Source: a virus
Taxonomy: Duplodnaviria > Heunggongvirae > Uroviricota > Caudoviricetes
Strand: one strand, 5' to 3'
IMG/VR virus record: IMGVR_UViG_3300031999_007842
Location: 1 to 53,707 of that record
DNA: 53,707 nucleotides
A model generated the notes under the pieces. That model did not search any database and was not told the DNA's origin. It saw nothing but the letters and a program-made list of their open reading frames with translations. Each line of letters opens with the position of its first letter. Positions within the stretch are counted from its first letter, which is position 1. The position numbers and the translations under genes were made by a program. Below are positions 35,043 through 40,250 of the stretch, one piece after another.

Positions 35043-36482
35043 TTACATCCTCCCTATTTCTCTTAGTCTATTACCTATTTGTTTCTTTCTCTCCTTGTCC
35101 TCAGGTAATCCAGGACCTCTCTTTCTTTCAACTATCTCCCTCATCAAAGCTTCTAAATCAAATGTTGAAGAGGAAGTTATTGGGTTAGCCTTAACAGCTA
35201 ACATGAGAGCATCAACGAAGTCATCATTACGTTTAGAGTCATATACATAATCAAGCATCTGCCCAATCAATCTCTGCTGAGTGAGTGGATCAAACTGTAA
35301 CCTATGTTGCTCAACTAGCATCCGAAGATTAGAGATCATTGTGGCCTTTTCTCCCTTAAATGCAATTGGAGCAACTGGAAGACCTTCAGCAGATAACCGA
35401 AGATTCTCTCCCTTATCAGTTGAGTCAGTATAGATAGTGATAACATTATAGCTTAGACAAGTAGCTTTGATCTTCTTATGTACCTCTTCAAAGTTCTGTG
35501 CCAAGAATGCTTCTGAATAGAGTATTTTCCACTGTTCTCCAAGCTTCTTAACTATGATCAAGACTGTAGGTGCTGGATAGTAACCCCAGTCAACTCCAGC
35601 ATAAACCTCTCCAATCTCTTCCTTAGGCTCTTCATCGATCTCGGGTTTGGGCTTTACTTGACATTCCTTGAGATCTTCCAATCGAAAGACTTTCCCTTCT
35701 CTCTTGTAAGGTAGACCTTGGATCTCTACACAATATTCATTAGCTGGCAACATACGTTTGAGAAGTTCTACTTGATCGTGAGGTAGGAACGATTCTGCGT
35801 TCCAGTTAAAGAACTTCCAATCTGGATAAGGATACTCTATTTGATGTTCCCATTTGTTTTCTATCCAGGAGAATCCTTCCGAAGGCGTTGATGAAAAGAT
35901 CTGTCTAGCAAATGGTGAAGGTGCTGTCATGGGTAATGCTGAATAGATAATATCTTCATCTACCTCAGCAGCCTCATCTATGATTAAGAGATCTGGGTGA
36001 TGTCCTCTAATCGACTTCTCTGAAGCTGGCAACGGTCTAATCCAAGAACCATCCTTGAAGACTATCTCTCGTTGTGTAGGCTCCTTGCCCAGATGCTTCT
36101 GTAAGAAAGGGGAATTATTAATGAAGTCCATAACGTAAGTAAAGCAGATCTTGGCTTGATCTAATGATCCAGCTAGGATTACTACTTTGAAAGGTCTGTT
36201 CTCTGAGATTGACATAACTAGAACATACCACAAAGCAACAACAGCCAGAGCTAAAGTCTTTCCTATTCCTCGCCCAGCGACGATTACGATGTTCTTGCAG
36301 GTCAAGCCTTGCACTTCGAGGAAGAATTCTTTTTGGAAGGGTCTAGGTTCTAAGTTAGTAACATCCTTGAAGAAGAGACTGAGATCCTTTCTCCACAGGA
36401 TAACCTTCATTAGAAGATCAGTCAGATGGAATCCTTTAAAGGAAGGACTATTAGGAATACCGGAACTATTTAGAACTGCCAC
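35043..36482 (-). CDS. terL: Terminase large subunit
   Basis: Walker A AGRGIGKT, Walker B LLIIDEAA, STP motif, nuclease GVDWG and DDFVDAL. Confidence 0.92.
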   Translation of the reverse strand: MAVLNSSGIPNSPSFKGFHLTDLLMKVILWRKDLSLFFKDVTNLEPRPFQKEFFLEVQGLTCKNIVIVAGRGIGKTLALAVVALWYVLVMSISENRPFKVVILAGSLDQAKICFTYVMDFINNSPFLQKHLGKEPTQREIVFKDGSWIRPLPASEKSIRGHHPDLLIIDEAAEVDEDIIYSALPMTAPSPFARQIFSSTPSEGFSWIENKWEHQIEYPYPDWKFFNWNAESFLPHDQVELLKRMLPANEYCVEIQGLPYKREGKVFRLEDLKECQVKPKPEIDEEPKEEIGEVYAGVDWGYYPAPTVLIIVKKLGEQWKILYSEAFLAQNFEEVHKKIKATCLSYNVITIYTDSTDKGENLRLSAEGLPVAPIAFKGEKATMISNLRMLVEQHRLQFDPLTQQRLIGQMLDYVYDSKRNDDFVDALMLAVKANPITSSSTFDLEALMREIVERKRGPGLPEDKERKKQIGNRLREIGRM

Positions 36483-37717: not shown

Positions 37718-38089
37718 ATGCCATATGTCTATGACAACGTAAACGGACAATACTATGATGAAATGTGCCGAAGGTTGAACCGAGAGCATAACCTAGTGAT
37801 TCATGCTAGAACTAAAGAGATAATTGTCGGTTGCACTAGCGATGTGAAACTGAAAGTTCAACATACAAAACATCTGGGCGGTTTCCCAACAGTAGCCTAC
37901 CACCGTTCAACCAATAGTGTGCAAGCAAACGGTAAATTCATAGTTCAACCGAGAAGTTCACCTGAAGGTGTAAGCCCAATGGCAACCGAGTGGTTGAACT
38001 ATAAGTTAAAGGGCGAGTTAGTCCTAAAGGCTACCTCACAATACAAGACCGTATGGAACACAAAAGGACAACGGAGAAGTAAAGCATAA
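37718..38089 (+). CDS. Hypothetical protein carrying five of the repeat motifs
   Basis: AGGAGG SD upstream; 123 aa with no recognisable domain. Confidence 0.4.
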   Translation: MPYVYDNVNGQYYDEMCRRLNREHNLVIHARTKEIIVGCTSDVKLKVQHTKHLGGFPTVAYHRSTNSVQANGKFIVQPRSSPEGVSPMATEWLNYKLKGELVLKATSQYKTVWNTKGQRRSKA

Positions 38090-38369
38090 GGTGAACTGAC
38101 TATGAAACGACAAAACAAACAAGACTTTAAACTGATAGTAAAAGTCTTGATTCAAACAGAAGGACACCCAACAGTTAAACGAGTAATTCCACTATCGGCG
38201 GTAACTCTCAGAATACCACTAGAGTAAATAAGAAATTGAACCAGCACTTTAAGAGCTGAGTAAACGAGCAGTTGAACCAGAAAGCAGGCGAGGTTCAACC
38301 AATGGTTCAACGGGCAACCTAGAAAGTTGAACCAACAGTTAGACCGATGAGATAACTTATCGGTTGAAC
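37773..38369. repeat. Array of ten palindromic GTT(G/C)AAC sites (iteron/operator-like)
   Basis: Exact copies start at 37774, 37856, 37905, 37943, 37993, 38271, 38293, 38305, 38326, 38363; several extend to GGTT(G/C)AACC. Confidence 0.85.
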
Positions 38370-38444
38370 TAAGAAGGAAACTCAAAATTACACTATATGG
38401 ATAACGTTCCGTTCCTAGTCAGAATGTAAGTGGAGGTGAAAGCT

Positions 38445-38657
38445 ATGAGGTATGAGATAAGTTGCCCAAAATGTAGATGTGGAATAGTGCAGACCTACAA
38501 GAAAGTGAACCTAGTGCAGACAATGGTGATAACCCAATGTATGAATAGAAAGTGCAACTACCGAGTAGCACACCTGATTCCAACAGATATGATACGCAAC
38601 GAAGAACCCACAATTGCAACGAAGCTAGACTACTATGGTTGTGTGATAGCAACATAG
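38445..38657 (+). CDS. Small Zn-ribbon protein
   Basis: CPKCRC..CMNRKC; GGAGGTGA SD at 38432-38439. Confidence 0.6.
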   Translation: MRYEISCPKCRCGIVQTYKKVNLVQTMVITQCMNRKCNYRVAHLIPTDMIRNEEPTIATKLDYYGCVIAT

Positions 38658-38719
38658 ATGACCACAACCTACCACCACGGAATAACACTTATAAGTCAGC
38701 ATGTGGTAAGGATAGATAA

Positions 38720-39745
38720 CCGAATAAAGCATGTCATGACGGTAGCAAGAGGTTAGGGTAGGTGGCAAGTGATTAAGTTCACTCACCTATACCACCCATC
38801 ACAGTCATAACGAATATGACAAGCAAGACAACATAGCAAGAGTATTTGACTCTACTATGAAGTCAGAAGGAGTAGCAATACTCCTTTCCACTTACCAATA
38901 TCACAACATCACAAATCCTAGTAACATCAGCGTATGTTACGCAGTGCCGTGAGTCTTACGGACTTATGGCAGTGCGAGAGTCATAAGGGAATGAAGCCTT
39001 ATAAGTTCCCTTTTGGCGATGAAGCCTATAGGATTTAGGAGACCGTAATTGGAGAGAGGTCTCTCTAGCCTATGAACCAATTGAACTCTACGTCGTAGAG
39101 CTAGATTAAGATGATGCCTAGGTCTCCAAAAGATAAGGTCGTATCAGACCTAAGTAAACCTAGGATATTCATCGGGTGAGGTGAGAAGCAACTCTCATGG
39201 TCTGTTGACCTCAACGGCAAAAGGACGCAAGTCTGGGGAGAAATCCCAACCCATGAGGTGAACCGTAAGAATTCCCTCATATGGTAGAGTGCTGCAGTCT
39301 AAGCAAGGTAGCACCTACACGATATACCAGCCATGAGATAAATCCTTCTCGACTAAGTCTATAGGTGAAACAGCATAAATGTGCCTCGACATAAGGATTA
39401 GGGGTCTACGACTACCGCACACAAATTGCTCCTGCTGAACGACAGTGCTGAGGGAAACCTCAGAGGCTTACTAAAGCGGGAGACAACGTGTACACGAATA
39501 CATCGAGCCATATTAGATGGCGATGGGGTTCAGTATCACGACACATTGTTCTCTATTCCAGACCCGAAAACAAATGTGAACAGACAACCACGTCCCCTTA
39601 GAGGGAATGAAGGATTAGACCAATGTGCCCTTTTTTCTAAAGCCATCACAGGCAACTTGTCTGAGAGTCCTAGACAAGCCTCGTTAACTAAGCACTCAAT
39701 AACGAGTGGTGTGATCAATGTAAGGGTTGAGGTTGTGATGGAGGC
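38720..39745 (+). ncRNA. Candidate large structured ncRNA (~0.9-1.0 kb), family unassigned
   Basis: No ORF of 60 aa or more across 38689-39425; about 20 helices found by eye, several GNRA loops, nested long-range pairings; TATA-like CTTATAAG at 38688-38695; boundaries approximate. Confidence 0.65.
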
Positions 39746-39776
39746 ATGATGATTCTCAAGTGAAAGGAGATAGGAT

Positions 39777-39956
39777 ATGAAGGTAACAGTACGGGCATAC
39801 CAGATAGCCCGAAGAGCATTCCATCCCATCATCAGACGTACACCAAGATTCGTGCATCACTTCTTTGATATCCCATGTGAGAAGTGTAAGGATGTTCACA
39901 AGCACGACATTAAGATGGGAAATATCTACATCATCAAAAGGAACATGAGGAGGTGA
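39777..39956 (+). CDS. 59-aa CxxC protein absent from the ORF track
   Basis: AGGAG SD; MKVTVRAY..CEKC..H. Confidence 0.5.
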   Translation: MKVTVRAYQIARRAFHPIIRRTPRFVHHFFDIPCEKCKDVHKHDIKMGNIYIIKRNMRR

Positions 39957-39960
39957 GCTG

Positions 39961-40080
39961 ATGGAACAAGTAGCAGAGATCACAATCGACTCAGCACAGA
40001 TCATTATCTACCGTGACGCTAATGGTCGCATAGTTCTCGGTGGACACGGATGGATAGAGTATTATGAGGCAGAGGCGTAA
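39961..40080 (+). CDS. 39-aa hypothetical protein
   Basis: Perfect GGAGGTGA SD; MEQVAEITIDSAQIIIYRDANGRIVLGG. Confidence 0.5.
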   Translation: MEQVAEITIDSAQIIIYRDANGRIVLGGHGWIEYYEAEA

Positions 40081-40081
40081 G

Positions 40082-40250
40082 CCTACCACGTAACACGACT
40101 GAAAGCCCTAGAAGTTTTACCTAATGTTACCCATAGTCTTAGGACGAGGGAACGATAGGTTGTGGTAGGAGGCAACATCCTAGTAGCAAACGAGAAGGCT
40201 TCGATACATGGAAGAGGCAAGAGGTTCTCCTTTCCTCTTGTTCCCTTCCT
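40082..40250 (+). ncRNA. Candidate structured cis-element (possible pseudoknot plus hairpin)
   Basis: Helices 40082-89/40162-69, 40090-95/40125-30, 40218-24/40234-40. Confidence 0.35.

Follow-up and report, generated by a model that had tools for sequence, protein, structure and literature searches.

The locus and its gene-free region

The IMG/VR record IMGVR_UViG_3300031999_007842 represents a tailed virus of 156 kb, and its first 53.7 kb (53,707 nucleotides, positions 1 to 53,707; here called the window) contain a region without genes from which a large structured RNA is probably made. The minus strand carries a structural block from 1 to 37 kb, with the large terminase (TerL, 35043-36482), portal, a LonB-type protease and glycosyltransferases; from about 37.2 kb a block of mostly small genes is read from the plus strand. 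No credible open reading frame (ORF) is present at 38658-39776. A first-pass annotation, made from the letters alone, had proposed that 38688-39745 encodes a new large non-coding RNA of the plus strand in an archaeal virus. This core claim was upheld by synteny, covariation, asymmetry of G-U pairs, a promoter-like box, a terminator and negative searches of Rfam, although several details had to be revised.

Stop codons interrupt all six frames: over the length of the element, each frame has 15-25 of them in the window and 4-30 in the homologues. ORFs of 100-167 amino acids are found occasionally in homologues, in differing frames and strands, and none is common to them; the lack of a credible ORF was thus borne out. 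The minimum free energy of folding of 38688-39745 (1058 nt) was -344 kcal/mol, far below the -283 ± 11 kcal/mol of 48 dinucleotide-preserving shuffles (z -5.6), and the reverse strand gave a z value of -6.2. For 300-nt windows at 38700-39150, z was -5.4 to -5.7, against a background for the whole window with a mean of -0.13 and a standard deviation of 1.2; the region is therefore exceptional.

Homologues

Contigs from relatives, fetched by means of their terminases, had 0.6-1.6 kb without genes at the corresponding place, on the strand opposite to the terminase and 2-3.5 kb upstream of it. Using nhmmer and two covariance models, the RNA sequence of the window was found at this place in 12 lineages, i.e., in all related lineages where the place was covered; their TerL proteins share 63-85% identity. 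Nine of the homologues are of full size (L002, L003, L005, L007, L091, L092, L103 with its 3' end cut, L107 and L147), and three are shorter and divergent (L145, ~600 nt; L099, ~740 nt; L096, ~480 nt), so that lengths range from ~480 to 1100 nt. The genes downstream vary between homologues, while the RNA is kept. A seemingly close relative without the RNA, L143, was rejected as such: its 1-kb gap is another intergenic region, and the place of the RNA lies beyond the contig end.

Searches farther afield were negative. At the DNA level, nothing matched in the phage GenBank collection. A scan of IMG/VR with a single TerL protein yielded nothing, whereas alignment-based scans gave the relatives. 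A conserved 18-mer in IMG/VR and GTDB genomes produced chance matches only (nhmmer was negative on 18 of 18 loci), and with a second, gapped pattern 34 loci were obtained, the sole model match being a known relative, L164 (the genome of L003). No member outside the TerL clade was thus recovered in the conserved-pattern scans of IMG/VR and GTDB genomes, and the family appears confined, as far as seen, to one clade of tailed viruses of 120-170 kb. A weak model match in a metagenome-assembled genome of Nanoarchaeia (L154, 18 bits) was judged to be due to chance; the conserved GA of the kink-turn was absent.

Secondary structure and strand

The RNA is predicted to fold into three domains with at least 16 helices (Table 1). 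Two covariance models were built, R1 for the 3' domain (39373-39629) and R2 for the central domain (38913-39114), and as a control the 3' partners were slid by 1-3 alignment columns. With R2, the 40 pairs were 92.2% paired, compared with 35-42% after sliding; 33 pairs had double changes, the covariation score was 0.66 (vs ~0.1), and not one of 500 shuffles came up to the observed value. With R1 (36 pairs, 13 distinct sequences), the figures were 88.9% vs 42-47%, 31 pairs with changes on both sides and a score of 0.49 vs ~0.1, and none of 500 shuffles reached the observed value on any measure. For the two domains together, 64 of the 76 modelled pairs showed double compensatory changes. When all 137 supported pairs were forced onto the sequence of the window, the cost was 12 kcal/mol over the unconstrained minimum.

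The other parts were approached differently. RNAalifold returned no pairs on the gappy alignment of the 5' domain, which was then analysed piecewise: 8 of the 16 pairs of P1 had compensatory changes, and P3 and P4 independently formed the same two-hairpin shape from differing sequences in seven of nine homologues. The middle region differs greatly in length among homologues; compensatory changes in its hairpins P9 and P10 were read by eye, as was P16.

Conserved loops are found in P7 (14 nt, 38992-39005) and P8 (13 nt, 39045-57). The P7 loop, UGAAGCCUUAUAAG, for which the consensus in homologues is GAAGYCYYAUAAGU, holds the palindrome CTTATAAG, which is also that of the promoter-like box at 38688-38695. 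As judged by eye, a loop-loop contact may join the P7 loop (GCCU) to the internal loop of P12/P13 (AGGC; GUCU/AGAC in L092); its register shifts between homologues, and it is a lead only.

Pairs of the type G-U or U-G exceeded A-C or C-A cells by 37 to 13 in the 3' domain and by 41 to 11 in the central domain (in total 78 vs 24), and therefore the plus strand is the folded RNA strand, in agreement with the first proposal. Model R2 matched the sense strand with 180 bits and the antisense strand with 27 bits.

As regards single helices, the first-pass annotation was right on the structured, non-coding nature of the region and on about half of its pairings. Covariation supports the hairpin at 38867-86 (P4), GTAACAT/ATGTTAC at 38921-40 (P5) and the helix 39429-36/39475-82 with its inner GAAA hairpin (P12, P13); CTCTAC/GTAGAG is supported by eye on the alignment. 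Several others are contradicted, as every homologue pairs the strands concerned with other partners. Instead of 38963-70/38980-87 there is a 15-bp hairpin, 38941-55/38961-75 (P6). GGAGACC has its partner at 39058-64 and not at 39121-27, as shown by L091, where GGCAACC faces GGUUGCC. A local hairpin, 39182-97 (P10), replaces 39193-200/39331-38, and CACATT/AATGTG at 39542-78 with its pseudoknot gives way to 39542-48 pairing with 39621-27 and 39574-78 with 39589-93 (P15, P16). AATTGG/CCAATT is not kept in homologues. The helices 38913-20/39029-36 and 39341-47/39393-99 were classed as occurring in the window only or lying outside the assessable alignment, and two small GNRA hairpins at 39223-47 fall within a variable region that could not be aligned.

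Kink-turns

Two kink-turn (k-turn) motifs were recognised, a canonical one (B) and a candidate (A). K-turn B is located in the terminal arm, adjoining an 8-bp helix (39552-59/39612-19), and contains all parts of the k-turn sequence pattern, namely a canonical (C) stem, a 3-nt bulge, tandem G-A/A-G pairs and a non-canonical (NC) stem. Its C stem of 3-5 bp covaries in nine of nine full-length homologues (GGG/CCC, GCA/UGC, GAAG/CUUC, GAGAG/CUCUC, GGU/ACC, GGC/GCU), the bulge reads AAU, GAU or UAU, the GA/GA pairs are invariant, and the 8-bp NC stem covaries as well. In L096 and L099, both short, only a loop is left of the C stem, which gives the k-loop form.

For the candidate k-turn A, the covarying helix P7 serves as C stem, and the strand after P7 reads (G/A)AU-GA-AGC. 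None of the 11 true members, among them the divergent L099 and L007, departs from the GA/GA pairs or the RAU bulge. Because its NC side lies directly against helix P6, this motif may be a k-junction. In archaea k-turns are recognised by the protein L7Ae (PMC5539422). The conservation of both motifs suggests a ribonucleoprotein (RNP) with bound L7Ae, for which binding is predicted at either site.

Predicted transcript limits and the downstream element

The TATA-like box at ~38688 and the T6 run at 39631-36, both pointed out by the first-pass annotation, are conserved. The former would be the promoter of the RNA, and with archaeal spacing (~25-30 nt) from this box we infer a 5' end near 38718. 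A palindrome, GTCATGAC, is situated at 38733-38740, near the putative transcription start, and is duplicated in L005; a site of this kind also follows directly upon the TATA-like boxes of L005 and L003, and it is not palindromic in L003, L107 and L103. Possibly it is the operator at which a regulator of the RNA gene binds.

The run at 39631 is the only sense-strand T6 in the entire plus-strand gene block. Throughout the window, T6 and A6 runs are depleted about four-fold (9 and 5 observed vs 36 and 30 expected), and within transcription units hardly any T6 lies on the sense strand. Archaeal RNA polymerase terminates at oligo-T, and the depletion together with the unique run fits this mode of termination. 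Most likely, then, the main RNA ends at the T6 run (39636) and not at 39745.

The ~100 nt that follow form a structured element of their own, present in six of the 12 homologues; nine of its 15 predicted pairs have compensatory changes. Its closing helix, in which TGTGATGG (39734-41) pairs with CCATCACA at 39643, covaries (variants CCAUCAC/GUGAUGG, CCUACCAC/GUGGUAGG, CCAUCUC/GAGAUGG and CCAUCCA/UGGAUGG); the alternative pairing with 38796, once thought able to close the whole molecule, is contradicted by the homologues. The element is absent from the closest relative, L091, and from five others, and is therefore treated as a separate module, not part of the main RNA. The tail element may perhaps act as a leader or in translational control of the next genes.

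Table 1. Features of the RNA locus (positions of the window)
Feature	Position	Strand	Description
A-rich stretch and TATA-like box	38680..38695	+	..GGAATAAnnYTTATAAG; kept in 8 of 9 aligned homologues
Main structured non-coding RNA (predicted limits)	38718..39637	+	~920 nt; 12 syntenic lineages; stops in all frames; z -5.6; Rfam negative
5' domain	38756..38886	+	P1 38756-97, P2 38804-20, P3 38827-64, P4 38867-86 (GCAA loop)
Central domain	38921..39068	+	P5 38921-40, P6 38941-75, P7 38980-39017, P8 39035-68; model R2
Candidate k-turn A or k-junction	38976..39025	+	N-A-G-A (38976-79) before P7; C-GAU-GA-AGC (39017-25) after P7
Middle region, variable length	39086..39372	+	Hairpins P9 39086-100, P10 39182-97; compensatory changes by eye
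3' domain	39383..39627	+	Model R1; P11 39383-405, P12 39429-82 around P13 39448-63 (GAAA loop)
3' domain, continued		+	P14 39507-21, P15 terminal helix 39542-59/39612-27, P16 39574-93 (by eye)
Canonical k-turn B	39560..39611	+	A-GA (39560-62), C stem CCC (39563-65); GGG (39603-05), bulge AAU, GA (39609-10), A
T6 run, likely archaeal-type terminator	39631..39636	+	Directly after P15; TTTTT(T/C) in 12 of 12 homologues
Tail element, ~100 nt	39640..39745	+	Closing helix 39643-50/39734-41; hairpin 39660-82 with conserved loop; then a conserved GGAGGC

Searches for known RNA classes

The whole window gave no match in Rfam 15 at gathering thresholds. With E ≤ 10 on 38300-40100, nothing was found except a 28-nt hairpin resembling domain V of group II introns (E 0.46; 19 bits, compared with a gathering threshold of 53), and this hairpin is P10; five homologous loci had no match at E ≤ 5. 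The covariance models of GOLLD, ROOL, OLE, HEARO and raiA did not recognise the RNA as a member. Those of archaeal, bacterial and type T RNase P were unmatched at E ≤ 10, and conserved regions of the P4 type were not recognised. No family proposed at the outset (GOLLD, ROOL, OLE, HEARO, introns, RNase P) was thus matched, so the RNA is not GOLLD, ROOL, OLE, HEARO, RNase P, signal recognition particle RNA, transfer-messenger RNA, packaging RNA (pRNA) or an intron.

Three candidates were considered separately and rejected. Group I and II introns were dismissed since the models were unmatched and the flanking ORFs are complete and differ between homologues; no reverse transcriptase gene was found in the 156-kb genome. 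Against a box C/D small RNA (sRNA) stand the sequences of the two strands, (G/A)AUGAAG and A-GA, the lack of guide spacers and a length of 480-1100 nt. A pRNA of the phi29 type had no Rfam match.

Surroundings of the RNA and the virus group

The remainder of the 156-kb record encodes a family-B DNA polymerase, ribonucleotide reductase (class I/II), a eukaryote-type topoisomerase IB and six tRNAs; several more glycosyltransferases of family GT4 are found there also (112-153 kb). The record is tagged "provirus", yet the parts that were examined showed no host flank, and it looks viral throughout. Where terminase relatives carried any label, it was archaeal (Candidatus Haiyanarchaeum/Parvarchaeota, Jordarchaeales), and the LonB of the window is of archaeal type.

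Every related locus, L143 included, encodes a member of a conserved protein family of 123-224 amino acids upstream of the RNA (37718-38089 on the plus strand of the window), with a basic C-terminal motif, QYKTVWNTRxQRR. It had no Pfam match, and an AlphaFold model (pLDDT 62.6, pTM 0.27) was too poor for a structure search. A second strongly folding region, 38100-38399 (z -4.4), overlaps an array of GTT(G/C)AAC palindromes; in L143 and L145 the corresponding upstream spacer has GTTGCAC/GTGCAAC repeats.

In the relative represented by L007/L008/L009 (10001-12322, 13669-16740), the terminase (773 amino acids) and LonB (1023 amino acids) are enlarged and show faint matches to LAGLIDADG_3, which suggests that both may carry inteins. 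In L164/L010 (IMGVR_UViG_3300009503_000020, 120717 bp), the RNA is at one contig end and the terminase at the other, as would be expected for a circular or circularly permuted genome.

Interpretation

We regard it as probable that the locus represents a new family, i.e., a stand-alone, trans-acting structured RNA of ~0.9 kb, which extends from a TATA-type promoter to an oligo-T terminator and whose k-turns recruit L7Ae of the host. The plus strand would be transcribed from about 38688 to the run at 39631-36, as a transcription unit of its own at the head of the early-side gene block. K-turn B in the 3' terminal arm and k-turn A in the junction beside P7 are the most likely sites for recruitment of L7Ae, and the working form would be an RNP in which the protein holds the RNA sharply bent and so draws its domains together. 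The conserved loops of P7 and P8 and the unpaired blocks could then be working surfaces for tertiary contacts, for partners or for catalysis. Such an RNA may serve in trans as a scaffold or as a catalyst, with a minimal core of ~480 nt.

Several points weigh against this interpretation. The alignments used for counting were fitted to the model structure, and there are ~11-12 distinct sequences, with effective numbers of 2.5-3.7 in the models, so that the covariation statistics rest on few independent lineages; nevertheless, the slid controls and the number of double changes leave little doubt that the structure is real. Transcription is deduced from sequence signals, and the TATA-like motif does not recur in the window as a promoter motif. 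In L099 the box and the RNA are separated by a small ORF, and the RNA may thus be co-transcribed with its neighbours. For k-turn A the NC side is conjectural, with one possible Watson-Crick pair that can be named (4b-4n, C-G or U-G). An L7Ae gene was not found in the 156-kb virus genome; the protein would have to be that of the host.

A more specific version is tentative, and we consider it rather doubtful: the RNA might be the core of a virus-specific RNP machine with an activity of its own, either a ribozyme or a pRNA-like part in packaging or replication, built on host L7Ae. If true, archaea and their viruses would have their first orphan class of large "ornate" RNAs.

It appears unlikely that the region serves the early genes downstream as a cis-regulatory RNA or a long, structured 5' leader, for example a device for processive antitermination or attenuation, in which the terminal hairpin with its U-run would be a regulated terminator and 39640-39745 would control access to GGAGG. 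The RNA is indeed on the same strand as the plus-strand gene block and directly upstream of it; a strong hairpin precedes the U-run, a second structured element with GGAGGC stands before the next ORF, and in L099 the RNA comes after a small ORF and lacks its own TATA box. Yet the downstream genes change from homologue to homologue and the RNA does not disappear with them, the downstream element is missing in half of the homologues, and 0.5-1.1 kb with three domains and two k-turns far exceeds the known leaders.

We see little probability in an element acting as DNA, for instance an origin of replication or a pac/cos packaging region, with hairpins in single-stranded DNA. Its position 2-3 kb from the terminase genes, near a strand switch and adjoining the palindrome array at 37773-38369, would suit such a function, and both strands fold well; but the wobble pairs and the model match are strongly biased to one strand, as described above. 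Motifs specific for RNA (k-turns with invariant sheared G-A positions, GNRA loops), the promoter-like box and unique T6 at the flanks, and the lack of iterated repeats or an AT-rich unwinding block inside also argue for RNA.

Equally improbable is a precursor which is cut into several small guide RNAs of box C/D-like or H/ACA-like type. Both k-turns have RAUGA strands like the start of box C, and AUCACA motifs recur after hairpins. The k-turns nevertheless lack the box C/D consensus (AUGAAG and A-GA vs RUGAUGA and CUGA), no conserved guide-like single strands occur between paired boxes, long covarying helices (P12, P15) join distant segments, and Rfam gave no snoRNA or sRNA match of note.

A tiling of short protein-coding ORFs, or a degraded gene, has a negligible probability and is refuted as far as sequence can show: a 107-amino-acid ORF starting with TTG is present in the window (39426-39749) and gene callers placed ORFs of 131-136 amino acids on the same strand in L003 and L147, but no frame is common to these ORFs and the other homologues lack them, stops occur in every frame, indels are not multiples of three, and substitutions follow base-pairing.

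Few large non-coding RNAs have an elaborate covarying structure, and nearly all of these that are understood are ribozymes or cores of essential RNPs. To our knowledge, the orphan classes to date (OLE, GOLLD, ROOL, HEARO, raiA) are bacterial or phage-borne, and our literature searches turned up no large structured RNA described from archaeal viruses. A family of 0.5-1.1 kb in every member of a clade of large tailed viruses of archaeal type would extend the orphan large RNAs to archaeal viruses. The two invariant k-turns offer an immediate experimental handle, and the series of sizes, from a minimal core of 480 nt to 1100 nt, defines dispensable parts.

Comparison with known systems

The first-pass annotation had suggested either a counterpart of GOLLD and ROOL in an archaeal virus or a new class; the latter was supported, whereas membership in the former was not, the resemblance being one of size and ornateness. 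Like GOLLD and ROOL, the RNA has several hundred nt in multiple domains, is encoded by a virus, appears to have its own transcription signals and contains many covarying helices. In contrast, those are RNAs of bacteria or phages, often beside tRNA genes, while the present one belongs to viruses of archaeal type and is 60 kb from the tRNA cluster. GOLLD and ROOL form protein-free cages (10.1101/2024.12.08.627333), whereas the k-turns described here point to a protein partner.

Also large and structured, OLE RNA is part of an RNP and has a k-turn as its site of protein recognition (PMC9723947). Both RNAs are large and have k-turns, the functional one of OLE (~600 nt) being bound by OapC. OLE is chromosomal in Gram-positive anaerobes, with genes for dedicated partners adjacent to it, and no dedicated gene for an RNA-binding protein was recognised beside the present RNA.

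The pRNA of phi29 is likewise a structured RNA encoded by a virus, and the present RNA gene is close to the terminase-portal module. The pRNA has 174 nt and an Rfam family of its own, whereas the present RNA is read away from the structural genes, together with the early block.

Archaeal box C/D sRNAs similarly build k-turns from RUGA-type and GA strands, and a k-loop variant is found in the short members of the present family. These sRNAs are 50-70 nt long, with RUGAUGA/CUGA boxes, a U-U pair and guides, of which the present RNA has none. A further parallel is archaeal RNase P RNA, also a large archaeal RNA with k-turns, to which L7Ae binds in the role of an architectural protein (PMC13462272).
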